This document shows positions 2-22,834 of a DNA stretch of 64,000 nucleotides, one piece after another. The notes under the pieces are model-generated. The model saw only the letters and a list, made by a program, of their open reading frames with translations. It searched no databases and was not told where the DNA came from. The translations under genes and the position numbers were made by a program. The DNA is from a candidate division FCPU426 bacterium (GTDB taxonomy: Bacteria; Oederibacteriota; PGYV01; Palsa-1178). The stretch spans positions 576,001 to 640,000 of the forward strand of contig CAWIXE010000001.1 of assembly GCA_963840035.1 (NCBI GenBank), given 5' to 3'. Position 1 is the stretch's first letter. Each line of letters starts with the position of its first letter.

Positions 2-3000
2 ATAACAACTGCAAGGCTTTATATTGACAGCGGTACTACGCCGGGAGTGCTGGACGGGTCCGACGTACAGGTGGGAGATAATGAGCCGTTTGTCATGTTC
101 GTTGTCGGGGATGGCAGGGTGGTTTTTGAAAAATCACCGCTTCTTTTCGGGGTAAGCCCGGGCACGCCAGTGGACCTTATACTTGTGGTAAGCCTGAATT
201 CAATCGGCGGAAAAAACTTCAGGGACGCGACTACGGCCGCGGACATAAACGCTTTTGACCAGGCTTTCCTGCCGGTGGTTGTATCCGGTTCGGCAACAGG
301 CAATTTCCATAATGTCATAGCACCGACCATGACAGTAACCCAGACATTTACGCCGAGCGCCACACAGACTGTGACGCAGACGGCTACGCAGACCATAACG
401 GAGATATTTACAAAGTCAGTAACACAAACGGTGACGCCGACAGGAACGTCAACAATAACTCAGACTATTACCGAGACCGTAACGCAGACAGCCACTCAGA
501 CAATAACGCAGACCGCCACTCAGACGGCCACCGAAACAGTGACTCAGACAGCAACGCAGTCAGCAACACAGAGCGTAACTGAGACGGTTACGCAAACAGC
601 GACGCAGACAGCCACTCAGACAATAACGCAGACAGTCACACAGACAGTAACCGGGACAATAACACAGACTGTAACGCAGACAATAACGCGGACAGTGACG
701 CAGACTGTGACACAGACTGTAACTGAAACAGCGACGCAGACAGCGACGCAAACCGCAACGCAGACCATAACGCAAACCGCGACTCAGACGGCAACACAGT
801 CAGTGACCCAGACAATAACACAGACAATGACGCAGACAGCAACACAGTCAGTAACTGAAACAATTACACAGACTGCTACACAGACCGCCACACAGACTGT
901 CACCCGGACCGCGACCGAAACCGTGACACAGACGGTGACCAAGACCGTGACTGAAACTGTCACACAGACAGTAACACAGACTGCCACGCCGACTGTCACT
1001 CAGACCGCGACCCAGACCGTGACGCCTACGACCGTATCCACGCCGGCGGCATACGCTTACATACAGCCTGAAATTGCGGTCAGCGGCGACAGGACAGTGT
1101 ATTCATATAAGGTAATATCGTACGGCAACGGAATGATAGACAGCCTGTTAATCGACGTGCCGCCGGGAGTGACGCTTAATAACACCCCTTCCACATCAAT
1201 GCCGGGCACGACAGTGTCAACCCCGTCGGGAGACATACTTGTTAATTACTCCACCCCGTGGAATGTTTTCTCAGGACAGGATTTTGACATCATAACATTT
1301 GACGCCACATCATCTTCAGGGGATAAATATTACGGGAGCACTTTAAACGGGCTTGTTGACGCGCGCGGCCTGACGCTTGGCGGACGCACGCAGATAGTGG
1401 CCATATCCACCCCGACATTTACCATAACAGCCACCGCAACCCCGACTTTTACCGCGACGCAGACCATAACACAGACTGTTACACAGACGGCCACTCAAAC
1501 AGCCTCGCAGACAATCACTCAGACCATAACGCAAACCGCGACGCAAACCGCCACACAGACAATAACACAGACAGCCACGCAGACCGGGACGCAGACGGCA
1601 ACGCAGACCGGCACACAGACAATAACGCAGACGGCCACGCAGACGATAACGCAGACCGCCACACAGACAATTACACGGACTATAACGCAGACAGCGACAC
1701 AGACAGCAACGCAGACAGGGACACAGACACAGACGCAGACTGTGACACAGACCGCGACTCAGACCGGGACGCCTACATATACGGTAACAGCCACTTCAAC
1801 GCCGACATTTACAGTCACGGTGACTTCAACATTTACATATACCGTGACGCAGACCGGGACGCCGACATCTACGGCCACGCAGACAGCCACACCAACCGGC
1901 ACGTTTACAATGACGGTGACGCCTACCTTTACAGAAACAAAAACGGCAACACCCACAAACACCGCGACCCCGTCAAATACGCCCACATTTACCGTCACTA
2001 TGACTTTCACTCAGACGGCTACACCGACAATGACCGCTACCACAACTGCCACTCCGACAAATACTCCGGTATTCAGGATGATGGCGCTGGCGCCGGGAGA
2101 GACTCCGCTTGCGTCAGCACCGGGGTATACGGGCACGCCGCTTACGCAGGAAGCGGGAAAACTTGTGACCATCACTGTCAGGGCTTATGACGATGTGTTA
2201 TTTAATCAGATAAATGTTTCAAACCTTATAACCATATCCTCATCGCAGAACGCCTGGACCGTACTGGATCAGGATAAAAATATGGCGGCAGGTGAGGCGC
2301 AGTTTTATGTAAGGTTCTTAAGGCCGGGTATTTATACCATTACAGCAAGGGACTTAAACGGCGAGTTTGCGGACGCTCCGACAAACTTAATACCGGTAAT
2401 AGTTACAGGCTTCGGCAATAACGCGCTTGTATCAAGGCTCATTTATAATGTTCAGACAGCCGTTAAAGGCGAAAAGAACGCGAGGGTGATGGATTTCACA
2501 GTCACAAACCCGAACTCCGGAGGGGCCCCGTACAGGCTAACAGGAGTTACCCTTACGGTATCCACGGCAGTTAATTCCGCCATAGAGCGCATAGTCATCA
2601 GGGACGGGACAAACACACAGATAAACCAGGTACCATGGGGCGCGGTAAAGCAGGTTTTTGTGCCTGTTAACATTTTAATAGACCCGCTGGCAAGCCAGAC
2701 CATATCCATAAACCTTGACATTTTAAACAGCGCGCCGGACGGGGCTTTCAGCGTTTCAATCGTGTCAGCCGCCAATGTGCTTGTGGAAAAGCTCGACGAC
2801 ACGAGGCAGTTTGTGGAAAGCTCGACAGGCACATTCCCGTACACAACCACGTCAATAAACGTCACGTCAGGCGACCTGACATCAAGCTTCTATAACTACC
2901 CCAATCCGTTCAAAGCCGGCTCGGAGCAGACCCTGATACAGTACTTCCTGGATAAGGACTCAAAAGTATCGCTTAAGATATATGACTTAACCAGCAGAAA

Positions 3001-3169
3001 AGTAAAAACCATAACAGAGTCGCAGCAGCAGACAGGCGGCATGATGTACAGGTTAAGCTGGGACGGAAGAAACGACGAGAACAAGCTGGTCTTAAACGGG
3101 GTATATTACGCGGTGATTAAAATAGACGGCGGCAAGCAGTACCATACGAAGATAATAGTGGTAAAATAA
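2..3169 (+). CDS. Large Thr-rich surface/secreted protein, 5'-partial, with FlgD-Ig/T9SS-like C-terminal domain
   Basis: Frame is open from base 2; two long (TQT[AVI])n tracts; C-terminus YNYPNPF...V(S)LKIYD...WDGRN...NGVYY...KIIVVK. Confidence 0.8.
330..1030 (+). repeat. Degenerate 12-bp coding tandem repeat ([12 protein letters not shown])
   Basis: acNcagacNgcN-type units repeated dozens of times. Confidence 0.9.
1410..2065 (+). repeat. Second Thr-rich coding repeat tract (TQTx grading into TPTx)
   Basis: Same 12-bp periodicity in DNA and protein. Confidence 0.85.
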
Positions 3170-3630
3170 TGGCGAAAAAAAACACGAACACGGCGGTCAT
3201 CAAAAACAGGAAAGCGTATTACGACTATGAAATACTAGAAAAATACGAGGCGGGAATAGTCCTGCAGGGCACGGAAGTAAAATCCATCCGTGAAGGCAGG
3301 GTGGACATAAAAGACGCCTTTGCCAGGATGTTCCGCGACGAACTATGGCTGATGAACTGCCACATAAACCCCTACACCCACGGAAACATAAACAACCACG
3401 ACCCGTTAAGGGACAGGAAGCTTTTAATGCACAGGAGCGAGATAATAAAACTCGTTGGAAAAATACAGAAAAAAGGGTTCAATTTAATAGCTCTCTCCAT
3501 GTATTTTAAGGACGGCAAGGTAAAGGTGGAGCTCGGGCTCGGAGTGGGGAAGAAGGCTTATGATAAGAGGGAGTCGATAAAGAAAAAGGACATACAGAGG
3601 GAAGAAGGAAGGCATGATATAAGGATGTAG
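3169..3630 (+). CDS. smpB: SsrA-binding protein SmpB
   Basis: NRKAYYDY...EAGIVLQGTEVKSIR...RKLLMHRSEI...KKAYDKR motifs; lies near tmRNA. Confidence 0.98.
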   Translation: MAKKNTNTAVIKNRKAYYDYEILEKYEAGIVLQGTEVKSIREGRVDIKDAFARMFRDELWLMNCHINPYTHGNINNHDPLRDRKLLMHRSEIIKLVGKIQKKGFNLIALSMYFKDGKVKVELGLGVGKKAYDKRESIKKKDIQREEGRHDIRM

Positions 3631-3679: not shown

Positions 3680-4183
3680 TTAATGTTTCTCTAATGATTC
3701 AAAATTTTGTTGTAAAAGCATATAAATACTGATTACGGTAAAAAATAAACCAATAGCGGCATCTGAAACATATATGTTTGAAAAACTAAAATGCTGAACG
3801 TTTCGCAATATTTCAACAGAGTTCTCAATTAATTTCGGTAAATAATCCACTAGACACACCAATACAAATGATTTAATAATTAAAATGGTAGTTTTTTTAT
3901 CAAAATTTTTGGCCTTTATATTTATAATTTTTTTATCGTTGTTTATAATTATATTTGATAATGTTTTAGAACCCGCAAACAAAAGCAAAACGACGATTAA
4001 GTTTAGGCATGAATAAAACAATGTTAAAAATATTGCAAGGTTTTTTTGATAATCTGTTTCAAATTTATAAACCGACCCAACAGAATATAGGGCAATCCCT
4101 AAAGATTGTAAAAAAAACAAAATGAAAACAAATGATAAAAACTTCAGCATGTATTCCATGATTTTTTTGGTTGTTATAATCAT
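3680..4183 (-). CDS. Hypothetical ~4-TM membrane protein
   Basis: AT-rich ORF with four hydrophobic segments; overlaps the stop of the upstream gene. Confidence 0.65.
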   Translation of the reverse strand: MIITTKKIMEYMLKFLSFVFILFFLQSLGIALYSVGSVYKFETDYQKNLAIFLTLFYSCLNLIVVLLLFAGSKTLSNIIINNDKKIINIKAKNFDKKTTILIIKSFVLVCLVDYLPKLIENSVEILRNVQHFSFSNIYVSDAAIGLFFTVISIYMLLQQNFESLEKH

Positions 4184-4728
4184 TTTGATTGATTGTTCTT
4201 AGGATAGATATAATTTACTATCTTCGTTGCATAGTAAATAAAGCATAAACCAAGTATCACCATAAATATAGCCGCAACGATTTTTGATGTGCCATAAGAT
4301 AAAAATTTTATGCCTTCGGTCGACACCCCATAATCTTTGTTATAAGTAAAATATGTCAAAGATTGGGAAAACTTGTTCACATAGTTCAATAGTACAGTCC
4401 AGCCTGTTGTGACTATTATGAGCTCAAATACAGAGCTTGCGTTCTTGCCATCTTTAAAAAATGTGATCTTCATGTCGGTTTTCATTGTTTCATTGGTTAT
4501 ATATTCTGTTTTTCTCAATAAAAAATAGGAAATTATAAAATATGCAATAGGCACCAATGCCAGCAAAACAACTCTGATAGCATCGCTTGAATCAAGAATA
4601 TAATGATTATCAAGAGGTTTTTTTGCAATGATGGATAAAACACCCACCGGCAGCGTTGTACACCCTAAAATTATTGAATATATACCTAACACCTTTAAAA
4701 TTAGCTTATAAATTTCCTTTTTTGTCAT
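4180..4728 (-). CDS. Hypothetical ~4-TM membrane protein, probable paralogue of 3680-4183
   Basis: G-rich RBS upstream; similar hydrophobic pattern. Confidence 0.7.
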   Translation of the reverse strand: MTKKEIYKLILKVLGIYSIILGCTTLPVGVLSIIAKKPLDNHYILDSSDAIRVVLLALVPIAYFIISYFLLRKTEYITNETMKTDMKITFFKDGKNASSVFELIIVTTGWTVLLNYVNKFSQSLTYFTYNKDYGVSTEGIKFLSYGTSKIVAAIFMVILGLCFIYYATKIVNYIYPKNNQSK

Positions 4729-4865
4729 TTATCCCCACCCCTTTTACTTACTGAATATAGGTATATTTTATCACCTTAAATCTTTATTTTCAAGAAATGA
4801 GTTGAATTATACTGTTTTAGCAAGTATATTATATATGCTTTCTGATCTATTACCCTTTACCATAT

Positions 4866-5203
4866 GGGGGCGACCGGATTCGACAGGTCTCGCGTAGATG
4901 TAAGGAGCATGCCAGTGCCCATGTCACTGTATAAACGTGGAACACGTAACTGCAAACGATTACGCTTTAGCAGCATAAGCTGCACCTCTTCTACTTCTTT
5001 TGCCTGCGGGATATAGAAGGGGACCAACAGCAGGCCGCTCAGTTAAGCGTTCTCCTTGCTTAGCTGCTAAGACTAAGGGAGAGTAGCGCCGGGTGATTGT
5101 GTCCGGTCAAGCAAACGGCGCGAAACCAAATACCGGAACAAGCATGTAGCCGCCTTTATCGAAACAGGTCTGGACGTGGGTTCAAGTCCCACCGCCTCCA
5201 CCA
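4866..5203 (+). ncRNA. ssrA: tmRNA
   Basis: 5' GGGGGCG pairs with 3' CGCCTCC-ACCA with G3:U; GGATTCGAC 5' motif; T-arm GTGGGTTCAAGTCCCAC; tag frame GCA AAC GAT TAC GCT TTA GCA GCA TAA (ANDYALAA, 4952-4978). Confidence 0.97.
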
Positions 5204-6694
5204 ATTATTGTTTTTCATTTTATAGAGAAATGAAAAATGATTTTTTACCGAAAAAGAAAGAGTTTTATTGGTAATCAAAGAGTTCAATAGTAGGATTTTC
5301 AAAAAATCACCCTGTTGAGCGAAAGTAAGAGTTTTATATCGATAAATAAAGAGATTCACGAGTTCAATAGTAAAAAGTGCTTTGTCGAGAGAACGACCCG
5401 AAAAACCCTTCCTCGCGTCAACCAACTGGGCCTCAACGTTCCTTATGAGGCCCATATACTCGGCGTTCTTTTCTTTCCAGAACGCCTCGTCAATCCTGCG
5501 GTCCGCCCGGTCGTCGTAAAGAGTGGAAACCCGACCAGTCAAAATTTTCTTTTCATTTTCCAACCGCGATATTGTCTGAGCGGAAATCTCATTGTCATTA
5601 CTGGCAGCGTTGGTCAGATGCTGCTTGATTGACTTTATGGCCTCGGCTGGCAAGTGTAACGGCGCAATTTGAGTGTGGAACAGTTTAGACATTTCCTCTG
5701 GTGAGATATAACAGTTCTTATGCTTACCCCTACCAAGAGTGCAATGATATCTTTCATACTTTCCCTTCTTATAAAACGTTCCAATAACCGAACACCCACA
5801 GAGCCCACATTTCAAAATACCGTTGAATGGAAACTTTACACAGCGTTCTTTTTGTTTGCGCGGGAAAACACCATAAGAGTCCTGTGCTTTTTGCCACAGG
5901 TCTCTTGAAACCAGAGGTTTGTGCGCGCCTTTATAGAACCCACCGTTCCAATTAAACTCGCCATAATAAAACGGGTCGCGTAATAACTTTGCCATTCTGG
6001 ACCTAACAACTCTCATGTTCCCTGGAAACTTAGTACCCAACTTGCGAGACCTCAAACCCTTTTGGTAGAGTATCTCTACTATCTCGTCTATGGTTTTATA
6101 CTTGGCCTTTAACTCAAAAGCCATTTTAACAAGCGGTCCACGGACAGGGTCGATATCAAGGACCTTTGTGACAGAGTTGTTAAGATAACCCAGCGGTGCT
6201 ATAGCCGGGAACTGGCCTTTCTCTACCGTAGAGTCCATACCTTTGCGGATACGTTTGGAAAGGTCGGCCGAATATTTTTCAGCCATTAAGACCTCTATCC
6301 CGAACATAAAAAATTCATCACTATCGGAATACTTATGTAGTTTCTTGTTAGTTCGGGCGAAATGAACCGTAACGCCGTCGTGTCGTATCAGTTTGCGAAC
6401 TCTGATTTTATCATCCTCATTTCTGGTCATTCTATCCGGGACATCAAAGACAAGGTGTTTGATTTTATTTTTTGCAACGTAGTCCAACATCTCTACAAAG
6501 TTCTTACGAACCCGGTCGCCGTCGTCCTTGCTGTCGTTTTTCCAAGCCGATTCAGGCCCGCGCCACAACTTTACTATTTCCAAACCGTTCAAATCCGCGT
6601 AATGCCTACCTGTTTTTTCTTGTGAGTCCATGCTTGTGTTGTCCTGTTGTTCCTCTGAAGAAACCCGGACATATAAAACCGCCAATTCTTTCAT
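5156..6694 (-). CDS. Large serine recombinase (integrase)
   Basis: YVRVSSEEQ catalytic Ser motif, DRMTRN, recombinase domain (PLGY...PFYYG...HKPLVS), Zn ribbon CGLCG...YHC, coiled coil. Confidence 0.95.
   Translation of the reverse strand: MKELAVLYVRVSSEEQQDNTSMDSQEKTGRHYADLNGLEIVKLWRGPESAWKNDSKDDGDRVRKNFVEMLDYVAKNKIKHLVFDVPDRMTRNEDDKIRVRKLIRHDGVTVHFARTNKKLHKYSDSDEFFMFGIEVLMAEKYSADLSKRIRKGMDSTVEKGQFPAIAPLGYLNNSVTKVLDIDPVRGPLVKMAFELKAKYKTIDEIVEILYQKGLRSRKLGTKFPGNMRVVRSRMAKLLRDPFYYGEFNWNGGFYKGAHKPLVSRDLWQKAQDSYGVFPRKQKERCVKFPFNGILKCGLCGCSVIGTFYKKGKYERYHCTLGRGKHKNCYISPEEMSKLFHTQIAPLHLPAEAIKSIKQHLTNAASNDNEISAQTISRLENEKKILTGRVSTLYDDRADRRIDEAFWKEKNAEYMGLIRNVEAQLVDARKGFSGRSLDKALFTIELVNLFIYRYKTLTFAQQGDFLKILLLNSLITNKTLSFSVKNHFSFLYKMKNNNWWRRWDLNPRPDLFR
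5187..5204 (+). repeat. Left att core TCCCACCGCCTCCACCAA
   Basis: Identical to 17928-17945; is the tmRNA 3' end. Confidence 0.93.
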
Positions 6695-6816
6695 GACACA
6701 CCACCGTAAAAAGATTTGTTGTGGACTCTAACGCGTGAGTGATTTTAAGTCAAGAAATACCAATTTAGACCAAATTAATTAGTTTTTGTCTATTTTTGTT
6801 TTTGCGTAAATAATTG

Positions 6817-7222: not shown

Positions 7223-8611
7223 ATGGTCAATCAAAACAACGCAAATGACAAGAATCAGAGGCCTGGTGGGACACCATTAAGTCCGATACACGGACAATGC
7301 TCCATCCCAAACGACAACCATGCCTCTGATATTTTTTTATCCCCTAAACAATACTATCGAGTATCAGTTGAAATTGCTCAATGGGCACATTCCGCTAATA
7401 TTAAATCTGCCAACCATAAAGGACAACACAAGTACGGAATCGCCGATTCTCTGGTTTACTCTGTGTTATTTGAAAGGTTTTGTTTCTATTTTAGTCAAGA
7501 CCAGTTAAAAGATGGTTGGTTCTACCAAAGTATCAGACAATTATCCAAAGCCACAGGTTTGTCTTTAAAACGAGTGCATATAGCATTGCGGTTACTTTCG
7601 AGGCATCAAGGTAATTGTATTGAGGTTAGAAAAGGCAATGCAAGTGTTGGAGAAGCAAATTGGTATAAAATTGTCAACGCCGAACTTGAACCAAGATATA
7701 CAAAAACGATAGGTTCAAAATGCAAAAATATGAATTATAAAAAAACATGCAATTACTGCTCGTATTTTATTGAATGTCAAAAAAAGAAACTTTTGATATA
7801 TATTCCCGGGAATAAAATCTTTGCACCCATAAGAAACAAATACATAACTATCCCCCCACGCATTGTAAAGACCCTTGGTATTAATGCTGCAGCGATTTAT
7901 GGAGTATTAAAAGGACAGCAAATAACAAACTTAAAGAAAAGCAAACATGATGCCCAAAAATCCATTTCTAAATTGTCCAATTTGCTTATGTTAAAACCCG
8001 ACACGGTAATAAGCAACCTAAAGAAACTTGAAAGTAAAGGACTTATAGTTATCAGCAGAAAAATGCGTGGTAATTGTAATACTTACAAAACAAACCCAAT
8101 AAACAAAGTTATACCTGTTTCCAAATCCAACGACGCCACCCCTATTCAGCCACAGCCCTGTTCCAATATGGATACAGGTTTAGTACATGGGACTACCCCC
8201 ATTCAGCCACGGGGTAGTCCCATTCAGAAACATATAATAAATAAAACAAGTAAATATACAGACAGTAAGACATTAAATACACATATAGAAATAGTTAAAT
8301 GCGGCCAAGAAGAAATGGCCGCATGTGAAGATATATTTCTTTTTGAAGAACAAAACCAAAAACCCTCAATATGTGAAGTGTCTTGTTTTGATAAGTGTAA
8401 CTCTAATGAAGGAAGTGTTTTTGGAAATGGGTTTGGTGGTTATGGATGGACCATTGCGAAGTTACGTAGCGAAGGCATGGCGGATGCCGATATCAAGTCA
8501 TTGGTTGCGGAACAACAGCAGCAGTTACAATTCGGGATAGTGCATGACTTGGTGCGTATTTTTTCTATGTCTTACGCATGTCCCAGAGAGGAGGTGGAAA
8601 ACGACAAGTAA
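7223..8611 (+). CDS. Putative replication initiator with two winged-HTH domains
   Basis: WFYQSIRQLSKATGLS...ALRLL and SISKLSNLLML...LKKLESKGLI wHTH patterns; AAGGAG RBS; internal DNA repeats. Confidence 0.6.
   Translation: MVNQNNANDKNQRPGGTPLSPIHGQCSIPNDNHASDIFLSPKQYYRVSVEIAQWAHSANIKSANHKGQHKYGIADSLVYSVLFERFCFYFSQDQLKDGWFYQSIRQLSKATGLSLKRVHIALRLLSRHQGNCIEVRKGNASVGEANWYKIVNAELEPRYTKTIGSKCKNMNYKKTCNYCSYFIECQKKKLLIYIPGNKIFAPIRNKYITIPPRIVKTLGINAAAIYGVLKGQQITNLKKSKHDAQKSISKLSNLLMLKPDTVISNLKKLESKGLIVISRKMRGNCNTYKTNPINKVIPVSKSNDATPIQPQPCSNMDTGLVHGTTPIQPRGSPIQKHIINKTSKYTDSKTLNTHIEIVKCGQEEMAACEDIFLFEEQNQKPSICEVSCFDKCNSNEGSVFGNGFGGYGWTIAKLRSEGMADADIKSLVAEQQQQLQFGIVHDLVRIFSMSYACPREEVENDK
8113..8260. 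repeat. Origin-like cluster inside the rep-like gene
   Basis: CC(T/C)ATTCAG three times; perfect 13-bp inverted repeat ATGGGACTACCCC/GGGGTAGTCCCAT (8187-8223); A-rich tract follows. Confidence 0.6.
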
Positions 8612-8654: not shown

Positions 8655-8849
8655 ATGCGCAATAGAACGGAATGGAAAGACCCGGATGAGGTTATGTTCG
8701 GGGAGTACATAGACCCGGACGAACGTAAGTTCGAGGTCTGGCACGGCCCAGAGGAAGCCGCGGTGGCCCACTGGATTAAAACGATAGAAGAACGCAGGAA
8801 AACACCCGGATACCAGAATCTACAAGGAGGAAAAAAATGGGAAGAGTAA
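8655..8849 (+). CDS. Small hypothetical protein
   Basis: AAAGGAG RBS; operon-like position. Confidence 0.6.
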   Translation: MRNRTEWKDPDEVMFGEYIDPDERKFEVWHGPEEAAVAHWIKTIEERRKTPGYQNLQGGKKWEE

Positions 8850-9382
8850 AACAATGGGTAATAGAAATGCAAGAGTGTGGATACATAGGTGAAAAACTTA
8901 CTGTTCCAGGATACGAGGGAAAGAAAACAAAATTCAGGAGGCCAACAATGGTTGACTTTAAAGAAGAGGTTTTTGATTTAAGCATGAAGCAGATAGAAGA
9001 TGGCGATTTCAACAAAAAAGTCGAGGCAACTGCGACACTAAGCAGAGACGACCATCGGTATTGGAAAGAAGTACTTTATCAAAACGCAAGGACCGGGTAC
9101 TACTACCTTGTAGTAGAAGGCGGATGCATATCACCTTGGGGACAGATGATAGAAAACCCTTCCAATATAGTTTATTGGACCAGCATGGGCAAATTGTACA
9201 TTGAAGGAAAAAAAGGCGAGGAAAAAGTATACGCGCCATGCCAGAGGATATACACTCTCGTTGGCCAAGAGGAAGAAGCCCTTTGGATTAAAAAAGTAGA
9301 AACAGAAGAAAAAATGGGTATATGTAAAATCGAGAGATTTACCCAAGAAAAAAAGATTGAGTCCATTCCATACGTTGGGTAG
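8837..9382 (+). CDS. Hypothetical protein, paralogue of 9437-9895
   Basis: AAGGAGG RBS; shared YWxExLY...Y(L/I)VxxGGxxSPW motif. Confidence 0.75.
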   Translation: MGRVKQWVIEMQECGYIGEKLTVPGYEGKKTKFRRPTMVDFKEEVFDLSMKQIEDGDFNKKVEATATLSRDDHRYWKEVLYQNARTGYYYLVVEGGCISPWGQMIENPSNIVYWTSMGKLYIEGKKGEEKVYAPCQRIYTLVGQEEEALWIKKVETEEKMGICKIERFTQEKKIESIPYVG

Positions 9383-9436
9383 TAAATGCTTTAATCAAGA
9401 CAGGTTGAGAGCAAACACTCTTGCCTATACTAAAAC

Positions 9437-9895
9437 ATGAGGAGAAAAATAATGTTTGATTATGGAAACGAAATGTTCAACTTAACGGCAAGTGACTTAA
9501 GGAAAAGACCGTTCCTTAAGGTATGTGGATTCAAGGCAACTATTAAGCGCAACGAAGAAGAATACTGGGAAGAAACTCTTTATTGGAATGAATCCACAAA
9601 GAAACACTACATTGTGGGCTCAGGTGGTTATAATTCACCATGGATGGAAGTGGCTGATACTCCAACAAAAATTCTATATTGGAACAAGCATGGTAGATTA
9701 CACATTGATAGAACAATGTTGGTTGAGTACGGATGGTGCCCAGGCAGGCGGATATATCAAGTTACAACAGATGAAATGAAGCAGTGGCGTCAGGAAAACG
9801 TAAAAAAGATAGGTGATGGAACATGTAGGATTAGCGTTGTAAGGAGAACGAAGTCCAGCAGACCAGTCAAAACTAAAACTAAAAGTAAAAAGTAA
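9437..9895 (+). CDS. Hypothetical protein, paralogue of 8837-9382
   Basis: Shared motifs; alternative start at the second Met (GAGGAG upstream). Confidence 0.75.
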   Translation: MRRKIMFDYGNEMFNLTASDLRKRPFLKVCGFKATIKRNEEEYWEETLYWNESTKKHYIVGSGGYNSPWMEVADTPTKILYWNKHGRLHIDRTMLVEYGWCPGRRIYQVTTDEMKQWRQENVKKIGDGTCRISVVRRTKSSRPVKTKTKSKK

Positions 9896-10298: not shown

Positions 10299-10862
10299 TC
10301 AAGGTGACGTAGTGGTCGTATTGGCCTTTTCTATTTTGAAATGCCTAAGGCCAACATTGTGGAACACTCTTATCCCATGGTCTTTGAGTTCGTTTACGAA
10401 ACCACCTGGAAAGCGAAGATCCTTAGCAAGGAAAACAAGGTCTTTTACCTGCTCTCTCTTTATGGCGTCCAATTCTACGAGGTCGCTGACACTTTTCGCG
10501 GCCTCAAAGTTTTCAGCCGTAAAGGTCTTTAATGAGACAAGAGAAAGGCGGTTGTTCCTTGCGAACTTGTTGATTATCATACGTGTCTTTAGTGCCTCGC
10601 AATTCGATGCAGACCTGCTTGAAAGGACTATTATCCCTACGGCGTTGTGTGTCATTTTCAAATCGTTCAAGAACTGGACTACGCTCAGCATGTTGGCAGG
10701 CGACGGATTGAATTGCCGTGTGAACCATGCGTTCACGGTATGCGTGCTTACCCCCAGCAACATGGACATCTCTGCGTTTGTGAGTTTGAGTTCCCGGCGT
10801 ATTTTATTCAACTCCAACAACATAGGACTGGCTATCTGATAATCTATATCTTCTGTTTCCAT
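10299..10862 (-). CDS. XRE-type HTH protein with C-terminal alpha/beta domain
   Basis: LNKIRRELKLTNAEMSMLLGVSTHTVNAW...P HTH; start moved to the ATG after GGAGG. Confidence 0.7.
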   Translation of the reverse strand: METEDIDYQIASPMLLELNKIRRELKLTNAEMSMLLGVSTHTVNAWFTRQFNPSPANMLSVVQFLNDLKMTHNAVGIIVLSSRSASNCEALKTRMIINKFARNNRLSLVSLKTFTAENFEAAKSVSDLVELDAIKREQVKDLVFLAKDLRFPGGFVNELKDHGIRVFHNVGLRHFKIEKANTTTTSP

Positions 10863-11057
10863 TTTCCCCTCCGCGATTCGTGTGTGTTTGGGCTTGGGAT
10901 TTTGGTCATGCCCACCAACACCTTGAAATATCAACCGATACTACTTAATGTTAGTAAATACCTTTTTATAGCCAAGTTTGAACCCGTTTTGTATGGATAA
11001 AATACAATAAAGGTGCTAAAATTACTCAATCAATATTTCTAAAATATAGGTGGTGTT

Positions 11058-12167
11058 ATGAGTAAGAAAGCAGGTTTAGCAAAGCATAAGTTCCTTTTGG
11101 GGGAGTTATTCTGTGGTCCTGGTGGTTTGGCTTTAGGTGCTATCAGTTCCGTCATTAAAAATAAGACCTCAAACTTAACAATTGGTCATTCATGGGCAAA
11201 TGATTACGATGAAGATACATGTAAAACCTATGCACATAATATATGCCCAAAAAGTCCTGAAACAGTTATATGTGAGGACGTTAGAAAACTAAATATTGAA
11301 AAACTTCCTGAAATTGACGCGTTTGCATATGGATTCCCTTGTAATGATTTTAGTATTGTAGGAAAACAAAAAGGTTTTGATGGAGAATTTGGACCATTAT
11401 ATACATATGGTGTCAAAATCATTAATAAATTTAGGCCAAAATTCTTTATTGCAGAAAATGTTGGCGGATTAAGAAACGCAAATGAAGGCAAGGCCTTTAA
11501 AAAGATATTACACGATTTACGTAGTTCGGGAAATGGTTATGAGTTGACGACTAACCTATACAAATCAGAAGAATATGGAGTCCCTCAGACAAGACATAGG
11601 ATAATAATAGTTGGAATAGATAAGAAATATGGCATGAGATTTGAAGTTCCAGCACCTACTACAAAAGGTGACCCTATTACAACAAGGGAAGCATTTGAAA
11701 ATCCAATAATACAAAAAGATGCGCCAAATAATGATTTTACAAAAGTGTCTGATGTAGTAATCGAACGGTTAAAACTAATAAAGCCCGGTCAAAATGTCTG
11801 GAATGCCGATTTACCTCAGCATTTGAAATTGAATGTAAAAGGTGCAAAATTAAGTCAAATTTATAAACGACTTGACCCAAATAAGCCATCCTATACGCTT
11901 ACTGGCAGTGGCGGAGGTGGCACGCATGGATATCATTATGAACACCCAAGGCCATTAACTAATCGTGAAAGAGCAAGAATTCAAACCTTTCCTGACTGGT
12001 TTACTTTTATTGGTTCAAGAGAGAGTGTAAGAAAGCAAATTGGTATGGCTGTACCTGTGAAACTATCAAATATCATTTTTACATCTGTTTTGAAAATGTT
12101 TGCACATATCGATTATCCAAGTACGAAACCAAGTGTTGAAGAAGAAACGCAAGAGGTCGTATTTTAA
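11058..12167 (+). CDS. C5-cytosine DNA methyltransferase
   Basis: Motifs ELFCGPGG, GFPCNDFS, ENV, PQTRHR, RERARIQTFP, QIGMAV. Confidence 0.96.
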   Translation: MSKKAGLAKHKFLLGELFCGPGGLALGAISSVIKNKTSNLTIGHSWANDYDEDTCKTYAHNICPKSPETVICEDVRKLNIEKLPEIDAFAYGFPCNDFSIVGKQKGFDGEFGPLYTYGVKIINKFRPKFFIAENVGGLRNANEGKAFKKILHDLRSSGNGYELTTNLYKSEEYGVPQTRHRIIIVGIDKKYGMRFEVPAPTTKGDPITTREAFENPIIQKDAPNNDFTKVSDVVIERLKLIKPGQNVWNADLPQHLKLNVKGAKLSQIYKRLDPNKPSYTLTGSGGGGTHGYHYEHPRPLTNRERARIQTFPDWFTFIGSRESVRKQIGMAVPVKLSNIIFTSVLKMFAHIDYPSTKPSVEEETQEVVF

Positions 12168-12185
12168 TAATAAAAGGGGTAAAAA

Positions 12186-13154
12186 ATGACTGCAGAAGAA
12201 GTTCTACTCAAAATTTCGGAATTTATCCATACAAGCCCCGAGGAAAGCGCAAAAATATTTGAAAAAGCAGTAGCGAGCAAAGAGATTACCGATGACAAAG
12301 ATACCGGTCTGATAGATGACTGGTTTAATAACAGATTTAAATCCAACATTGTATTTATAGACCAAGAAGGTTATGCAAAAATGTGCATTGATGCGCTTAA
12401 AATTGTTGGAACTATTGCGGCCACTGATTATGGAAGTAGCAGACAACGAGACCTCGGCCAATTGTGGGCAGATATGACTCGTGGATATTTAGGTGAACTT
12501 GCTTTTACAAAATTGTTGAAGGAAAGATGGGATATAGATTCCACATTAGACCACAGTGCAGGGGCATTGGACGATTTTATAAACTTAGACATCCACAAAA
12601 TCAAAAAGCCAAACGAACTTGAACGCCCTCCAAAGTTGAACATTGGAATAAAAACAACAAAATGGAATGGCATATGGCTTGATATCCCAGGAGACCAATT
12701 TAATCATTCAGATATCCATATATTTATAAAAGTTGGTACTGGTAGAGACCATTTATTTGCTTACTTTAGAGAAATAAGTGTATTTAAAGATAAAATTTTG
12801 AAAAAAGGAACTGATAGTGGCATCTTGAACCAGTCAGAAGCGGATGATTTGTATGATAAACTTCCAAAATTTCATTCCATCCCCGCATACATTTGTGGCT
12901 TTGTTGAAAGAGATAAAAAATATAAAAAACTATCATATGGTGGGTCGAAAGGTAGAAAAAATTATAAAATTGACGAATGGCATGGTCCAATGGAACCGTC
13001 TGACTTACCAATTATAAAAGAAAAAGAAGAAGTTTACGGTAAAGTTTCCTTTGAAGGTATCGGTGAATTTTCAAATAGCAAACGATACTTATTTAATGCT
13101 GGTAATTTATTATGGAAAAAAGAAGATTGGGACAAAGTTATAGAAAGGATTTAA
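12186..13154 (+). CDS. Putative type II restriction endonuclease
   Basis: Directly downstream of the MTase; GYLGELAF...D...IGIKTT resembles a PD-(D/E)xK variant. Confidence 0.6.
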   Translation: MTAEEVLLKISEFIHTSPEESAKIFEKAVASKEITDDKDTGLIDDWFNNRFKSNIVFIDQEGYAKMCIDALKIVGTIAATDYGSSRQRDLGQLWADMTRGYLGELAFTKLLKERWDIDSTLDHSAGALDDFINLDIHKIKKPNELERPPKLNIGIKTTKWNGIWLDIPGDQFNHSDIHIFIKVGTGRDHLFAYFREISVFKDKILKKGTDSGILNQSEADDLYDKLPKFHSIPAYICGFVERDKKYKKLSYGGSKGRKNYKIDEWHGPMEPSDLPIIKEKEEVYGKVSFEGIGEFSNSKRYLFNAGNLLWKKEDWDKVIERI

Positions 13155-13258
13155 AATTAGGCAACATTATCCTAGCCGTCAATTATCATAACTGCTAACC
13201 CATTGAAATAGGTTGACATTTTACCTCTGGAAATTCAACGAAAGAGGAGGTAAAATAT

Positions 13259-14833
13259 ATGTGGTTCATGAAGAAAAAGAAAGAAAAGGGAAAGAGAAAA
13301 TACACAAAAAGCGACTCCGCCGGTAAAATCTACTCAAAAGAAGAAAAACTAAAACTGCTAAAAGAATTTGAACAGATAGGTGCGCCTATTACTATGTTCT
13401 GTAAGTGGTATGGAATGGGCGTCGGTACTTTTAAAAGCTGGCAAGAAAGGTACAAAACAGGCGGTGAAGAGGGGCTGGAAGATAACCGCGGCGGCAAAGT
13501 AGCGCAGGAAGTACCGGAAGCGGTAAAAGCGGAAATAGTCAAATTAAAGCTGGAAAATCCCGGAATTGGAGTTAAGAAAATCGGGGATTATTTGATGCGC
13601 AATAAGTTCGTAAAAGTATGCCGCGACGGTATTGAAAAAGTCCTCCGAACCGACCCTCAGACAGCAACAATGGTACAGGAAAAAAGCCTGCGGCATGGAA
13701 ATAGTCAAAAGGAACCGCAGCGTTTTGAAAGAAGCAAACCCGGCGACATGTACCAGATGGATATAATGACATTTATGCTGCAGGGGCTGTACCGGATATA
13801 TGTAATAGCATGTCTGGATGATTATTCGCGGTTTGTCGTCAGTATAGGGGTATTTCGGAACCAAACCAGCGACAGGGTCCTGGATGTGCTAAAAAACGCG
13901 ATAGAAAAGTACGGCATGCCAAAAGAAGTGCTTACTGATAACGGCAGGCAGTTTGCCAGTTGGAGGGGGAAAAGCACATTTCAAAAATTCCTTACAAGAA
14001 GCGGAATAAGCCATTTGAGAAGCCGGCCGTATCATCCCCAAACCTGCGGAAAAGTTGAATCGCTCTGGCGGAATATGTACCAGGAATTACTAAGTAAAGA
14101 GCCGATATCCAGCTTTGAAGACGCGCAGGAAAAGATAGGAAAATGGGTGGAATGGTATAACTTCAAAAGGCCGCATCAGGGGATTGATGGGTTACTGCCT
14201 GCTGACAGGTTTTTCAGCGTTGAAAAGTCGGTGCGTGAAGTTATGGAAAAAGGGGCAGGAATGGTAAAAGACGCGCTAATTGTTGACCCGAGAAAATTAA
14301 AAGAGCCTATGTATTTAATCGGAAAAATAGGCGGAAAAGAAATACGGGTAATAGCAAAAGAAGGAAGTGTTATGGTTGAGGGGTTAGATGCAGTGGAGGA
14401 AAAAAAGGAAAATAAAGAAAATAAGGGGGTAATTGAAAATGGAACAGGAGAAAATTCAGCAGGAAATGATGGAACAGAAATCCACGAAGTACTACAGGGA
14501 AATCCCATACGAGGTGAAGTTTCAGGCAGTACTGAAAGTAATGGCAAAGGAAAAGAAGGTGAAACAGGTCTGCGAGGAGATGGATATATCGAGGGAGACG
14601 TTCCGGGAGTGGAAGAAAATAGCGCTGGAAGGGATAGCCAGGGCGTTCCTGAAGACGGAGAAGAGAGGCAGGAAGCCGAAGAACTACGTGAAGGAAGAGG
14701 ATCTGAGGGAAACAGTGACAAAGGCGCAGGAAGAACAGCGGAAGCTGGAGGAAAAGATCCGGATACTGGAGGAAGAAAAGAAAAAGGCGACACAGGAACT
14801 GCAGATAGCCAGGAAAGCAACGAGCTTCTTTGA
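13259..14833 (+). CDS. IS481-like transposase (HTH + rve core)
   Basis: YQMDI, LDDYSRF, LTDNGRQF, HPQTCGKVE, YNFKRPHQGI. Confidence 0.92.
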   Translation: MWFMKKKKEKGKRKYTKSDSAGKIYSKEEKLKLLKEFEQIGAPITMFCKWYGMGVGTFKSWQERYKTGGEEGLEDNRGGKVAQEVPEAVKAEIVKLKLENPGIGVKKIGDYLMRNKFVKVCRDGIEKVLRTDPQTATMVQEKSLRHGNSQKEPQRFERSKPGDMYQMDIMTFMLQGLYRIYVIACLDDYSRFVVSIGVFRNQTSDRVLDVLKNAIEKYGMPKEVLTDNGRQFASWRGKSTFQKFLTRSGISHLRSRPYHPQTCGKVESLWRNMYQELLSKEPISSFEDAQEKIGKWVEWYNFKRPHQGIDGLLPADRFFSVEKSVREVMEKGAGMVKDALIVDPRKLKEPMYLIGKIGGKEIRVIAKEGSVMVEGLDAVEEKKENKENKGVIENGTGENSAGNDGTEIHEVLQGNPIRGEVSGSTESNGKGKEGETGLRGDGYIEGDVPGVEENSAGRDSQGVPEDGEERQEAEELREGRGSEGNSDKGAGRTAEAGGKDPDTGGRKEKGDTGTADSQESNELL

Positions 14834-14939
14834 AAAAAACGATGAAGACGGCGCAAAAAAAAACGCCAATATGCGGAAAGTGTTAAAAGAAATATACTCA
14901 GAAGTGCCGAAGAAACCGTACAAAACGGAGGAAGTATAA
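14433..14939 (+). CDS. IS3-type OrfA (HTH + coiled coil)
   Basis: VKQVCEEMDISRETFREWKK HTH; leucine-zipper-like region; A9 slippery run at 14855-14863. Confidence 0.8.
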   Translation: MKMEQEKIQQEMMEQKSTKYYREIPYEVKFQAVLKVMAKEKKVKQVCEEMDISRETFREWKKIALEGIARAFLKTEKRGRKPKNYVKEEDLRETVTKAQEEQRKLEEKIRILEEEKKKATQELQIARKATSFFEKNDEDGAKKNANMRKVLKEIYSEVPKKPYKTEEV

Positions 14940-15904
14940 AGGCGTATTTTGATTCAATCGGGGTTCCAAGGGAGTATTATTATGCGTGGAAAAAGAAAGA
15001 TACCCTGGAACCCCAAAAGACAGGGCCGAAACATGCGCCGTGGGCCTTGTCTGGTGAAACAATACTCCGGGTGCTGGAATTAAAACGGAGGTTTTCGGAA
15101 ATATCAACTAATTATGTTTTGGCAATAAAAGCGGGTATATCGCCAAGCAGCGTTGCAAAAATAGTTTATGAGTATTTTGGGCCCAGGAAAAAGCAAAAAG
15201 CGGGAAAGAAAGAGTACAAGTCAGTTGAATGGCTAAAAAAGCATGTCAGCTGGGCGCTAGATACGATTAAAATACGCTGCGAAGAAGGGTATGTGTATGT
15301 TCAGCTGGTATTTGAGGAGTACTCAAGGTGTGTGCTTGGTTGGATTATGAGTTATTCAAATACCGGTGAAAAGGCGAAAATCCTGCTTGAACGCGTGATG
15401 AACGAGCAGGGAATAAAACCGCTTGTGGTTAAAACTGACAGGGGTTCTGAGTTTCAGAACGAAGTATTAATAAGTTATTTGAAAGAAAAAGAGATTCTCA
15501 CGATGCCCAGCCCCGGGCATTATCCGCTTTTCAACGGGAAACTGGAGCGCGAAAATCAGATATTTGAGAAATATCTGAAAACTGAAAAAGGAGGGTTAAA
15601 TTACGAAAAAGTATACGCCAAATTTGAAAGAGCGATTTATGAGATTAATCACGAAATGCCGCGGCGTATATTTGACGGCAAAACAAGCGCTGAAGTTTTC
15701 AAAAACGGAGAAATATACAAAAACGAAGAAAAGCATGAGCTAATTAAAAAAGCTGAAAATGCGATTGCGGAAATTGAAAAACAGAAAATACCGGGACTGG
15801 ATAAACTTGACGTTGTGAGGAAGGCCGTGGTAAAATCAGTTGTAGATATGGGGTTGTGTTTGATCAAATCCGGAGAACAAAATGTCAACCAATTTGCGGG
15901 GTAA
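14855..15904 (+). CDS. Second DDE transposase (OrfB), probably reached by -1 frameshift
   Basis: The -1 frame is open from the A9 run and reads KRQYAESVKRNIL...IGVPREYYYAWKK, then WALDT, KTDRGSEF, NGKLER. Confidence 0.85.
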   Translation, partial: KKKRQYAESVKRNILRSAEETVQNGGSIKAYFDSIGVPREYYYAWKKKDTLEPQKTGPKHAPWALSGETILRVLELKRRFSEISTNYVLAIKAGISPSSVAKIVYEYFGPRKKQKAGKKEYKSVEWLKKHVSWALDTIKIRCEEGYVYVQLVFEEYSRCVLGWIMSYSNTGEKAKILLERVMNEQGIKPLVVKTDRGSEFQNEVLISYLKEKEILTMPSPGHYPLFNGKLERENQIFEKYLKTEKGGLNYEKVYAKFERAIYEINHEMPRRIFDGKTSAEVFKNGEIYKNEEKHELIKKAENAIAEIEKQKIPGLDKLDVVRKAVVKSVVDMGLCLIKSGEQNVNQFAG

Positions 15905-15923
15905 AAAGTGACAATAATTGACA

Positions 15924-16447
15924 GGCAGGACAATCATGAAGACCCTGAGTTTATCGCAGCGTGTAAGAAGAGCGATGCTGAAAAGGAACTGAGAGAAGCC
16001 AACTTAAGACGCGATTTTGGGGCAAAAGTTCTCAGTGAGCAAGGCAAAGATAAGACAATTGTGTTGGATAAGGTTGGTATGATATTCCTTGCGAGGTCTG
16101 GTAAGGCACTATATACGACCTCTTGCGAGATAGAGGTAGATGGCGGATACACGGCCGAGATAGGGTTTAGAGAGGACACATACCCGGAACTGTTGCGGAT
16201 ATTGAAACAAAGGTTACCTGAGCATTACAGGACAAAGATAACTGACAAACTTGAAAAGGAGTACACAAAGCCCATATACATACCCTGGTTCACAGCGTTT
16301 GACTTTCGAATCGAAGCAGTGTTAGGTTCGCCATTACACCATCAGGATGGCAGAGAGTTTATCCCTTTCTATGCCACTAAGGTTGAGGAAATTAGAGTGG
16401 AATACAGTAAACGTAAGAAGAGGCAGTCAAAAAAACCACAAGTTTAG
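15924..16447 (+). pseudogene. Hypothetical protein, apparently 5'-truncated by the IS
   Basis: The start called in the ORF track (GTG 15908) lies inside the right IR. Confidence 0.5.
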
Positions 16448-17782: not shown

Positions 17783-17927
17783 CCAGTTATTTCTAAGGTA
17801 ATTATTTACAAGTTATATCAGTTCGGTTCTCTGGCGCCGACAAACTGCGCAACCGTTCGTAGGTGGAATCGAAATCATCGGTGGTAAACCAATTTTGAAG
17901 TGAGGCAAAACTCGGACACTCAAAATA

Positions 17928-17945
17928 TCCCACCGCCTCCACCAA
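17928..17945 (+). repeat. Right att core (displaced tmRNA 3' end)
   Basis: Identical to 5187-5204. Confidence 0.93.
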
Positions 17946-17984
17946 ACAAAAACATCCGCGAAAGCGGATTTTTTTGTTTGGTGG
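17939..17984 (+). terminator. Intrinsic terminator, probably the native ssrA terminator
   Basis: ATCCGC-GAAA-GCGGAT stem + T tract directly after the displaced CCA end. Confidence 0.8.
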
Positions 17985-18028
17985 AAAAACAGGTAAAAAG
18001 CAAATCCAAATTTGTATCAGAAGCAAAC

Positions 18029-19197: not shown

Positions 19198-19380
19198 ATG
19201 GATAAGTCAAAAGCATTATTGGATGAGATTTATTTAAAAGCCTCAGAGTCGTCAAATATATATGAACTCATCATGAACCTGATGAAAGAGACATCCTTAA
19301 AACTGCGGGCGGCCGGCATCAATGACATGTATTTATCTTCCGGGGTTGTAAGTAAACCCGGGGAGAGCGGGCAATTATGA
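19198..19380 (+). CDS. Small hypothetical protein
   Basis: GGAGGG RBS; stop overlaps the next ATG (ATGA). Confidence 0.55.
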
Positions 19381-22300
19381 ATATTTTAAAGGCTGTCAGT
19401 GGCGGGGCGTCGTCAGTCCGTAACAAAATCATAATTGCGGCATTCTTTTTTATCGCATTAACCTCTTCCTTATATTCCGCGCCGTGCTGGAACCTTGTTT
19501 GGGCTGATGAATTTGACAAGGGATACATAGATACAAATAACTGGAATTTTAATACCGGCTGCTCCGGGTGGGGAAACAGTGAGTGGGAAAACTACACAAA
19601 TTCCGCAACCAACTCTTATATTGAAAACGGAAATCTTGTTTTAAACGCCGTCAATACCGGAGGCGGCAATTGCGGTTACACGTCCGCGCGTTTAACCACC
19701 CAGGGAAAAGTGCACTTCACCTACGGCAGGATTGAAGCCAGGATTAAGTGCCCGTACGGCCAGGGGATATGGCCCGCGTTCTGGATGCTGGGGGAAAATA
19801 TAAGTTCAGTAAACTGGCCCGCCTGCGGAGAACTTGATATTATGGAAATGGTGGGCGGCGGTTCAGGCAAGGACAATGTGACGGTAGGCACCGCGCACTG
19901 GGACAACGGAGGTCACGCTTCTTACGGGCTCACAGCTTCGGTAGGCTGGCCCGCCAAACTTTCCGATGATTACCACATATACGCCATTGAGTGGGATGCC
20001 ACGCAGATAAGGTGGTATTTTGACACCAATAATTACGTTACGCTTAACACAAACGGCGCTTCCATGGAGGAATTTGTAGGAAAGGATTACTTCATATTAT
20101 TAAACCTGGCAGTTGGCGGGCAGTGGCCGGGTTATCCTGACGGCTCAACCGTGTTCCCGCAAAAAATGTATGTTGACTACGTGCGCTGGTACCAGGACGG
20201 CGCGTGCGGCCCGACCAATACGCCAACGCCTACTCCGACGCTTGTAGTTACCAATATCCCGGGCAATGTCCAGTTTGAAAATTATATGAACAGCGGCGAA
20301 GGAGTATCTTACCATGATACTACAGCTGGAAATACTCCCGGACAATACAGGAGCGACGGCGTGGACATTGAGGCCTGCTCTGAAGCGGGCGGCGGTTATG
20401 ATGTGGGTTATACCGCAGCCGGAGAGTGGCTCAATTACAGGATAAATGTTCTTCAGGCAGGGACTTATAATATAGGAGTCCACGCGGCGTCACTCGGCGC
20501 GGGCGGGACATTTCATCTGGAACTCGACGGAGCAAATATTTCCGGACAGCTGACTGTCCCCGACACTGGCGGATGGCAGACGTGGCAGACGCTTACAGTC
20601 AATAATATCAGTATTAGTTCTGCCGGCCTTAAAACTTTGAAGCTCGTAATGGACTCAAACGGCGCCACAGGGAGTATCGGGAATTTTAATTACGTATCCT
20701 TTACCGCCGGTATTAATGCAACACCCACATTTACACCCGCAGCGTCAAACACACCGCCTCCGGGCAGCGACGCGCTCATACCCTTAAACGCCGGCAAGAC
20801 CATGACCTGCCAGTTCATTAACAACACAGGCAATTATTCCGACAGCCAGATATATGTGATTGTAATAGGCTTAAACGCTGCCATGAAATACTGCCGGCTG
20901 GACACCGCGGGAAACATGATTCCGTGCGTCTCCGGGGATAATGCCGCCCCATATTTTATCCCTCTCTCGTCCATAAACGGTCTGCAGTTTCCCGATACCA
21001 TGATATCAGTAAGGCTTTATGTGTCGCTTGGCGCGCCGCTTAACATACCTTTTAATACTGACGGCGGAGGCAATGTGGGCATCGCGTATCCGAGCATAGA
21101 TAACCCCTCTGACCCGTCCTATAACTCGGTTTTTGATTTTGTGGAATTTAACCTGCAAAATAATATTATATTCCTCAATTCGTCGCAGGTGGATATGTTC
21201 GGCGTGCCTACGCAGTTAAGGCTATATGATAACGGGACTCCCACGTATACGCTTAACGGGCAGATGGGGATACCGTACAGTTTGGCCCAGATTGCTTCGG
21301 ACTGGGCAGCGCAGGTACCGGCAGAATTCCAGCACCTGTACGCCAACGGCAGGATTGTGTCGCCCACGCATGGGCAGTTTGCGGCAGGAAGGGCATACGC
21401 GAATTATTTTGACGCATATATAAACAGCATCTGGAGCCAGTACGCGTCAAGCGACCTGGTGCTGACCATAGGCGCGAGCGTTTTTACAGGCCGCGTAGGA
21501 GGGGATACCAGGATTGCGTTCACAACTCCCGGAGACCCGGTAACTTATTACGTCGAGAAACCAAATACGCAGGATGTTTTTATGGGAGCCGGGACGCTGG
21601 CAAAGGGCAACGGCGTGGAAAAACAACTGGAGGCGCAGATATGCGCGGCATTTAACAGGCATGTAATGCAGAATATTTCCCTCGCGAATACGCCTTCCGC
21701 TTTTTACCAGGCTTCGCCCGCGAACTGGTACGCGAAATTTTGGCACGACCATTCGCTTTTTAACATGGCATATGGTTTCTGCTACGACGATGTCAGCAAC
21801 CAGTCAACTACACTGGTCTCCACAAATCCCCGCGGTATGGTGGTCGTAATAGGAGCCAACAACCAGGTCCCTGCCACATACACAATGACAAGAACGCCTG
21901 TTAATACCGCAACAAAAACATTTACAGTTACCTTTACGGCGACGAGGATAAACACAAGCACTTCAACGGCGACGTCCACAGCGACCGGCACAACCACGGT
22001 GCCTGCCGCGACCTTTACCGCGACTCCGGCAAATACGGGAACATTAACATCTACCCATACCGCGACTATTACCCTGACTCCGGCAAATACAGGAACATTA
22101 ACAGCGACCCGCACGGCTACAGTTGATGTTTCTCCGACTGTGACTTCGTCAAACACAGTCATTTTAACAGCAACCAGCACTGCTACAGTAAGCGCGGCTA
22201 CATCAACCGCTACAGCCACAAACACCGTGACAGTTATATATACAAAGACTCAGACGGCTGTAAATACGCCAACGTGTACTCCCACAAAAACAAATACTGC

Positions 22301-22745
22301 CGCGTTTACTTCAACCAGGACAAGCACTCCTGCTTCCACGCGGACTTTTACCGCCACAAGAACATCAACAACAACACCTGTAAACACTCCTACCACGACG
22401 GTAACAAAAACACAGGATGGAAAACTCGGGATACAGGACACCGTTGCGTATCCAAATCCAATCAGTAAAATGGACAATACAGGGATTAATGTCAGCTTTA
22501 AACTTTCGGCAATTGCCACAAAGTTAAAGTTCAGGCAGTTTACCACCGGCTACAGGTTAATACGGGAAGTATCGTTTACAGCCGGCGAGGTAAATGGGGG
22601 CCTGGACTCAGGGATTAATGTTATCACCGTACCCGCAAAATACTTAAAGGGATTATCCGCCGGCACCTATTATTATGTGCTGTCAGCTGAGGATGGCCGG
22701 GGGAATAAAACTTCTTCAGGGCTTAAAATTGTCATCGTATTATGA
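19377..22745 (+). CDS. Secreted multidomain beta-1,3-glucanase: GH16 + CBM6-like + GH64 + Thr-rich linker + C-terminal sorting-like domain
   Basis: WPAFWMLG...GELDIME (GH16); GEWLNY...TGGWQTW (CBM6); DFVEF...SQVDMFG...NWYAKFWH...AYGFCYDDV (GH64); AYPNP C-terminus. Confidence 0.88.
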
Positions 22746-22794: not shown

Positions 22795-22834
22795 AAAAAC
22801 AAAAACATCCGCTTTTGCGGATGTTTTTGTTTTT
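22795..22834. terminator. Bidirectional intrinsic terminator
   Basis: AAAAACAAAAACATCCGC-TTTT-GCGGATGTTTTTGTTTTT. Confidence 0.85.

Follow-up and report, generated by a model that had tools for sequence, protein, structure and literature searches.

Serine integrases whose genes run into their own integration target have been described before. In the ssrA islands of Dehalococcoides reported by McMurdie et al. in 2011 (PMC3146451, available to us in part), the serine integrase DsiB, of about 540 residues, is encoded on the reverse strand beside attL, and its gene always lies over attL with its stop in ssrA or in the next island. The DsiB tails are divergent, the islands carry a repeat of about 20 bp of the ssrA 3' end, and the authors considered that perhaps only the circular form is fully functional. 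This layout, published for DsiB at ssrA, is also in print for the streptococcal rumA ICEs and for phage Mx8. In 2014, according to the accessible part of the Islander paper (PMC4383910), tRNA genes were not among the known targets of serine integrases, and the words tRNA, tmRNA and ssrA never occur in the main text of PMC10083194, the supplements of which may list such targets. Large serine recombinases are given for 27 of 937 Prochlorococcus elements in a preprint (10.1101/2020.12.28.424599, accessible part), and the mechanism behind the direction of serine integrases is treated in PMC11722253 (likewise available in part). Our search, which was confined to the open-access literature, brought up no study in which tail isoforms had been tested for a serine integrase that targets tRNA or tmRNA.

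The window (the whole stretch of 64,000 nucleotides that was analysed) holds an island of the same layout. Its integration target is an intact tmRNA gene (ssrA) at 4866..5203 on the plus strand (ARAGORN; Rfam RF00023, 153.8 bits), present in one copy in the 3.46-Mb genome. ARAGORN called a tag starting GDQQQ, whereas the Rfam-aligned tag region reads A-N-D-Y-A-L-A-A, as in relatives. The longest repeat is exactly 18 bp (5187-5204 = 17928-17945; chance expectation in the window 4e-7) and occurs in two copies only in the whole genome. The left core (5187..5204, plus strand) comprises the last T-loop base, the 3' T-stem, the 3' acceptor stem, CCA and one further base, and the right core (17928..17945, plus strand) is the displaced 3' fragment of the tmRNA. 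The two cores are 12,741 bp apart, giving an island of about 12.7 kb, and the GC content changes from 0.34 to 0.46 just beyond the right repeat. Another attR, of the short internal type, was sought in 5300-30000 and no convincing candidate was found; symmetry scans of the att sites gave no clear centre, and the crossover was not placed. An attR register 23 bp inward, with a frame from 17921 that appeared helix-like by eye, was rejected on its profile score of -4.9 (rank 584 of 6398), about four scores as good being expected among 60 positions. When sequencing runs were searched for the element, the best run held a fraction of 0.11 of its words, and four runs covered only pieces of the tmRNA and short unrelated matches, none of the runs spanning the element. 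Outside the island, two low-GC ORFs resembling membrane proteins (3680-4728, minus strand, no Pfam match) lie between smpB (3169-3630) and the tmRNA gene, and large proteins encoded at 47-3169 and 19377-22745 have long Thr-rich repeats and resemble each other at their C-terminal ends.

The integrase gene (5156..6694, minus strand) encodes a large serine recombinase of 512 aa with the C-terminus ...NNNWWRRWDLNPRPDLFR, and it is the sole integrase gene of this type in the genome. The protein has the catalytic domain with the serine of the Y-x-R-x-S motif (Pfam Resolvase, PF00239, E 1.1e-17, residues 5-161), the Recombinase domain (PF07508, above cut-off) and a zinc ribbon (Zn_ribbon_recom, PF13408) which at 24.8 bits is slightly below its cut-off of 25.3. 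S12 is invariant across 105 aligned homologues, and the zinc-ribbon residues C296, C299 and C318 are each at least 90% conserved. In the AlphaFold model (mean pLDDT 90.7) coiled-coil helices are found at 350-429, and Foldseek ranks complexes of serine integrases with att sites at the top (E 1.9e-19). A sigma-70-like site upstream of the gene (6725..6753, minus strand, 9 of 12 consensus positions) is weak, as judged by 8 such sites in place of the 4.8 expected. At its other end the ORF covers the last 48 nt of the tmRNA gene in antisense, which corresponds to its last 16 codons including the stop; codons 498-503 are inside the core and codons 504-512 are tmRNA antisense. The final predicted helix spans residues 485-492, the pLDDT is below 50 at 500-502, 504-506 and 509-512, and the point at which the tail is exchanged lies 11 residues beyond that helix, which places both tails outside the fold as predicted.

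An earlier note on this DNA had stated that the integrase reads through the att core, ends LNPRPDLFR antisense to the tmRNA and receives a different tail when the ends are joined across the core, and these statements are borne out. Scripted joining gave 503 shared residues followed by 37 residues instead of 9 (37 codons plus stop, 17813..17927, minus strand; stop at 17813-17815), that is, a prospective excised form of 540 residues compared with 512 in the integrated form. State-dependent isoforms thus follow from the sequence, provided that the distal 18-bp repeat is the element's own attR. Conservation of the tail in homologues, which the note had proposed as a check, turned out unfavourable for a control function, the integrated tail being imposed by the target (see below) and the 37-residue tail having no homologue: among longer proteins none shared three words with it, a result that the tool itself rates as weak evidence. 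The 37-residue tail contains five prolines, and on the family tail profile the switched tail positions scored -9.5 compared with a null mean of -9.55; the leave-one-out scores of this analysis are partly circular. On the same profile the tail scored -1.6 and two held-out far ends scored 16.3 and 20.6, while two further far ends in a shifted register gave -13.4 and -0.3. An open run of 37 codons arose in 13% of shuffles and from 22% of random starts, and the length of the tail is within chance. A modelled complex of residues 280-497 plus a 43-residue far frame scored 0.01, with controls that did not fold either. All eight members of the tmRNA clade (8 of 8) are integrated forms, so that excised tails of this clade are absent from the sample.

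The integrated tail, on the other hand, is dictated by the tmRNA sequence, because the tmRNAs of relatives give the same antisense frame mostly without an integrase. The frame W-R-R-x-[DE][LS]-N-[PR] was present in 30 of 30 tmRNA loci (30 fetched of the 36 above cut-off, in 41 genomes), with a stop 5-69 codons further on, and a full-length integrase was present at only two of them (L024 and L026); a third locus, L027, has the same ending ...NPRPDLFR and no integrase match in its flank. At yet another locus (L086, G043:C11:108249-108450) the tmRNA 3' end is duplicated over 189 bp with identical downstream sequence. Neither tail of the integrase looks selected in this element, as far as the sequence allows this to be judged. 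An Ala-Ala end is the mark of an ssrA-type degron. The integrated tail ends in DLFR and the excised tail in TELI, neither of them Ala-Ala, while the tmRNA tags of the relatives end in ALAA; a BPs-type ssrA-like degron is absent from both integrase isoforms.

To compare endings across the family, 265 homologues were sorted by rule (120 listed of 707 in one search and 150 listed in a second, overlapping one). Tails antisense to a tRNA or tmRNA, 4-89 residues long, were assigned to 98 of them, a stop at most four residues from an anchor Trp to 29 and an RT-type tail to 23 (at least two of the 23 RT calls are wrong); 46 had other endings and 69 were unanchored. A check of the DNA showed that the stops near the anchor Trp occur on tRNA-Asp and tRNA-Gln. 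The anchor (W498 here) is found in 139 of the 265 rows at that column, where the ORF reads through the CCA end of the target, and conservation within the family stops at a P-F motif near 486-487 and at Trp 498. In a tree built from 90 of 245 sequences, the eight closest proteins, each of which reads into tmRNA, grouped as one clade (support 1.0). Around it in the tree stand tRNA-targeting, RT-tail and short-tail members, among which it is nested, and tmRNA tails recur elsewhere.

The excised or tandem form of the family is marked by an amphipathic helix whose [FLV]-R-[TN] lies eight positions beyond the Trp and which is common to 19 hand-checked homologues, and judged by this pattern the excised-form tail of the wider family does look selected. 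The R-T of the helix may partly reflect a DNA motif, and its hydrophobic pattern suggests selection at the protein level. In the AlphaFold model of the RT-type homologue P0153 a helix was predicted at 488-507 within a block of pLDDT 40-52, the alignment mixing tail types. Candidate far ends were found in 4 of the 19 related stretches examined, many of these stretches being too short; for three of the four, the choice among 3-4 candidates was made by eye. These four far ends share just 7-9 bp counted from the CCA end, and the T-loop word is best placed in them at +5 bp (4, 7, 5 and 5 of 7). The corresponding values for the window are 17 bp shared and 1 of 7 at +5, with the best match (4 of 7) at +3. 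According to the accessible part of PMC3783163, attP is characteristically distinguished from attB by a zinc-ribbon motif shifted by 5 bp. The combination of a short core and an [FLV]-R-[TN] helix in the far arm was not found in the window element, and by sequence the integrase belongs to a broad family of tDNA-targeting serine integrases, without the excised-form helix. The related genomes G007, G076, G027 and G083 (L071, L077-L078, L081-L082 and L083) contain candidate elements of 6.7-31 kb at tRNA-Glu or tRNA-Gln genes, with short cores, a +5 T-loop word and helix-like far tails.

Among the closest genome relatives, G001 carries at its tmRNA gene an integrase 61% identical to ours (L032, 6854-8386), interrupted near residue 265 by a stop and a change of frame; in the same island there are a methyltransferase-like gene and an IS. 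No far end was found for G001 or G005 by 16-, 13- or 11-base or gapped patterns, or by BLAST over 99 genomes, both assemblies being fragmented. Viral contigs yielded no close relative. At least 120 viral loci had the 17-base core, one serine recombinase being among those listed, which does not read through the core, and at least 120 had a short core with the +5 word, with two serine recombinases among those listed. One viral locus, L326, has a family member that is broken and whose frame crosses a short core of tmRNA type bearing the +5 word. At locus L301 (506-2194) a serine recombinase runs through a tmRNA-type core in sense orientation, the core being repeated 164 bp away in a mirror layout. 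All matches in phage and plasmid records were below 60% identity, the best-ranked at about 26%.

A strong hairpin with a U-run lies at the island's distal end (17938..17985, plus strand, inner GC stem 17954-17969, -33 kcal/mol, z -9.05), in agreement with the claim that the terminator now sits there, and it is likely the original tmRNA terminator; a near-identical copy of this hairpin is found in host DNA at 22797-22832. The accompanying claim that no terminator follows the intact tmRNA holds for canonical ones, no GC-rich terminator being detected 3' of the gene by a consensus scan, but not for weaker structures. Directly 3' of the tmRNA, within the last integrase codons, there is an A/U-rich 15-bp hairpin with a U-run (5207..5246, plus strand), of which the part 5207-5241 has -10.1 kcal/mol and one G-C pair. 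It was equalled by 23 of 1000 synonymous shuffles and was stronger than the other 977, and it may represent a weak replacement terminator. The same test was non-significant at five related loci (0.40-0.78; three are identical there), and the hairpin is therefore not a conserved feature. The region 5204-5330 as a whole folds as three hairpins (z -4.24). On the minus strand upstream of the tmRNA (4740-4870) no terminator-like fold was found (z 0.31). The tmRNA 3' end overlapped by the integrase gene is paired in the mature RNA, as seen in the Rfam alignment.

Besides the integrase, the island encodes an HTH or replication-initiator-like protein (7223..8611, plus strand; Pfam HTH_36; phrog_428, E 7.5e-11) and a C5 DNA methyltransferase with an adjoining 322-aa ORF that has no family match (together 11058..13154, plus strand), the latter being, from its position, the likely restriction partner. 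An IS481/IS3-like insertion sequence of 2767 bp is nested in the island (13167..15933, plus strand). Two further copies, on C1 and C2, are 100% identical to it, and it has therefore been active recently. Its ORFs specify two rve-type transposases (524 aa, just under the IS481 cut-off, and 285 aa) and, in another frame, an overlapping 168-aa HTH protein; a pair of transposase-like ORFs within one IS is unusual. The C-terminal half of an HTH protein at 10299-10934 (minus strand; its ORF is also delimited as 10299-10862) resembled a degenerate resolvase catalytic fold by eye; a profile comparison to that fold was non-significant (E 0.18), and the ESM Atlas gave no hit. Two related-looking ORFs without family match occupy 8837-9895, about 670 bp of which recur with 72% identity on contig C2 near 1,598,600-1,599,270, with no integrase match nearby. 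The small ORFs of the island had no family match, two of them gave no usable match in the ESM Atlas, and no tRNA was found in the island. The lack of a recognisable recombination directionality factor (RDF) among these genes says little, because RDFs share no structural theme according to the available part of PMC11795197.

Observed at the locus are the repeat together with the reading frames, the domains of the protein, and an integrated tail fixed by the tmRNA sequence. The explanation that we hold on balance, with some reserve, is that the integrase gene crosses the left repeat of a 12.7-kb tmRNA island and that the exchange between tails of 9 and 37 residues is a by-product of an att site at the end of the gene, not a control switch. 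The integrase would recombine attP with the tmRNA 3' end, the tmRNA being restored by the core copy that the element brings along, and the host terminator would move to the far end of the island upon integration, to be replaced in part by the weak A/U hairpin. Residues 1 to about 492, the folded part of the enzyme, are predicted to be identical in both states, with only the loose tail differing, and direction would be set by att-site geometry together with an RDF, as in other serine integrases. A different history, which we regard as unlikely, is that the copy of the repeat at 17928-17945 was left behind by another or older island; the crossover would then lie near the CCA, the element's own attR (with a short core, +5 T-loop word and RT helix) would have been lost, and the 37-residue tail would never have been natural. 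The far ends of the relatives, with 7-9 bp and the +5 word, point in this direction when compared with 17 bp and 1 of 7 in the window, as do the +5 shift known as an attP-versus-attB hallmark (PMC3783163, in part), the nesting of the tmRNA clade among tRNA-targeting, RT-tail and short-tail members, and L326, where a family member is found at a short core of tmRNA type that has the +5 word. However, the four far ends come from 19 stretches and three were chosen by eye, and L326 was picked by a pattern that contains the +5 word. A relic is further opposed by the lack of another attR candidate in 5300-30000, the single integrase of this type in the genome, the increase in GC content right after the repeat (0.34 to 0.46), and the DsiB islands themselves, which according to the accessible text have a 20-bp repeat and an inferred T-loop crossover (PMC3146451).

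The earlier note had gone further and suggested that the two isoforms, together with antisense silencing, could set directionality. On this view the 37-residue tail would be functional, favouring integration or altering half-life, and its loss upon integration would change activity and replace an RDF. That the tail is swapped follows from the sequence, integration of Mx8 lowers integrase activity by turning a 112-residue end into 13 residues (PMC4701971, PMC6070905), the stability of the BPs repressor is switched likewise (PMC4557955) and the extreme C-terminus of SprA has been implicated in directionality (PMC11722253), all as given in the accessible parts of these papers; the conserved excised-form helix in the family is a further point in favour. 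Yet the tail in question has no homologue, falls off the family profile, contains five prolines and has a chance length, the swap point is 11 residues beyond the final predicted helix and the integrated tail is imposed by the tmRNA. We find a functional tail here distinctly unlikely; a regulatory reading of the swap is weakly supported, and directionality control by the swap is not supported here. Very improbable, in our opinion, is a selected antisense control in which read-through from the tmRNA, and pairing of the integrase mRNA end with tmRNA, silence the integrase in the integrated state. The 48-nt convergent overlap, the displaced strong terminator and the absence of a terminator-like fold on the minus strand at 4740-4870 are consistent with it, and RNA-seq has detected read-through from ssrA into an integrated prophage at 0.05-0.35% of ssrA transcripts (PMC9951164, in part). 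But a hairpin with a U-run stands behind the tmRNA, three hairpins form in 5204-5330, the tmRNA end that the gene overlaps forms base pairs in the mature molecule, and convergence needs no selection because the gene position imposes it for any family member. A highly doubtful synthesis would be that a large family of serine integrases aimed at tRNA and tmRNA 3' ends has the crossover in its own last codons, the attP arm encoding both the 5-bp-shifted motif and the helix; with the helix lost on integration, the enzyme would be flipped or damped, a directionality switch built into the protein and independent of an RDF; the tmRNA clade would have moved the crossover and acquired another working tail, with read-through as a second lock.

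A tail swap that did control direction would offer integrase engineering a useful one-protein substitute for RDFs, and its study would be a direct test of a question open for DsiB since 2011. The window element is a poor test case for such a switch, and relatives with the RT helix are better ones. For now, our finding adds one tmRNA island and demonstrates that integrated-form tails are imposed by the target; the annotated C-termini of such integrases are chimeras with the target gene.

With regard to known systems, the phage-type large serine integrases (LI/A118, SPbeta SprA, Bxb1 and phiC31) have the same catalytic, recombinase, zinc-ribbon and coiled-coil domains as the integrase described here, with which they share 12-16% identity, and no RDF was identified here. 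Mycobacteriophage BPs, the repressor precedent to which the earlier note had pointed, does have an att site inside a gene and a state-dependent C-terminus, as here; it differs in that a repressor is split and an ssrA-like degron removed, a tag that is missing here (PMC4557955, in part). In myxophage Mx8 (IntP/IntX) attP is inside int and the C-terminus is rewritten, like here, and the change in activity has been demonstrated (PMC6070905, PMC4701971, both in part); Mx8 differs in having a tyrosine recombinase and an exchange from 112 to 13 residues, compared with 37 to 9 here, the latter beyond the predicted fold. In the streptococcal rumA ICEs an att site lies within the gene of a serine integrase, and integration alters the length and sequence of the C-terminus, as here, but their target is a protein gene, their repeats are 2-21 bp and they are conjugative (accessible part of PMC4701971). 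DsiB, and not the repressor, is the closest precedent, and the same idea is already in print for it (PMC3146451, in part). The six-gene module of the DsiB islands (dsiA, recF, parB, mom, a large ORF and an embedded tRNA) was not found in the island in the window, and the 15-bp DsiB motif upstream of the repeat was not evident by eye. In both, a reverse-strand serine integrase beside attL runs over a repeat of the ssrA 3' end (about 20 bp in DsiB islands, 18 bp here). We do not file the island as one of them, but it works like the DsiB ssrA islands, a likeness of layout.
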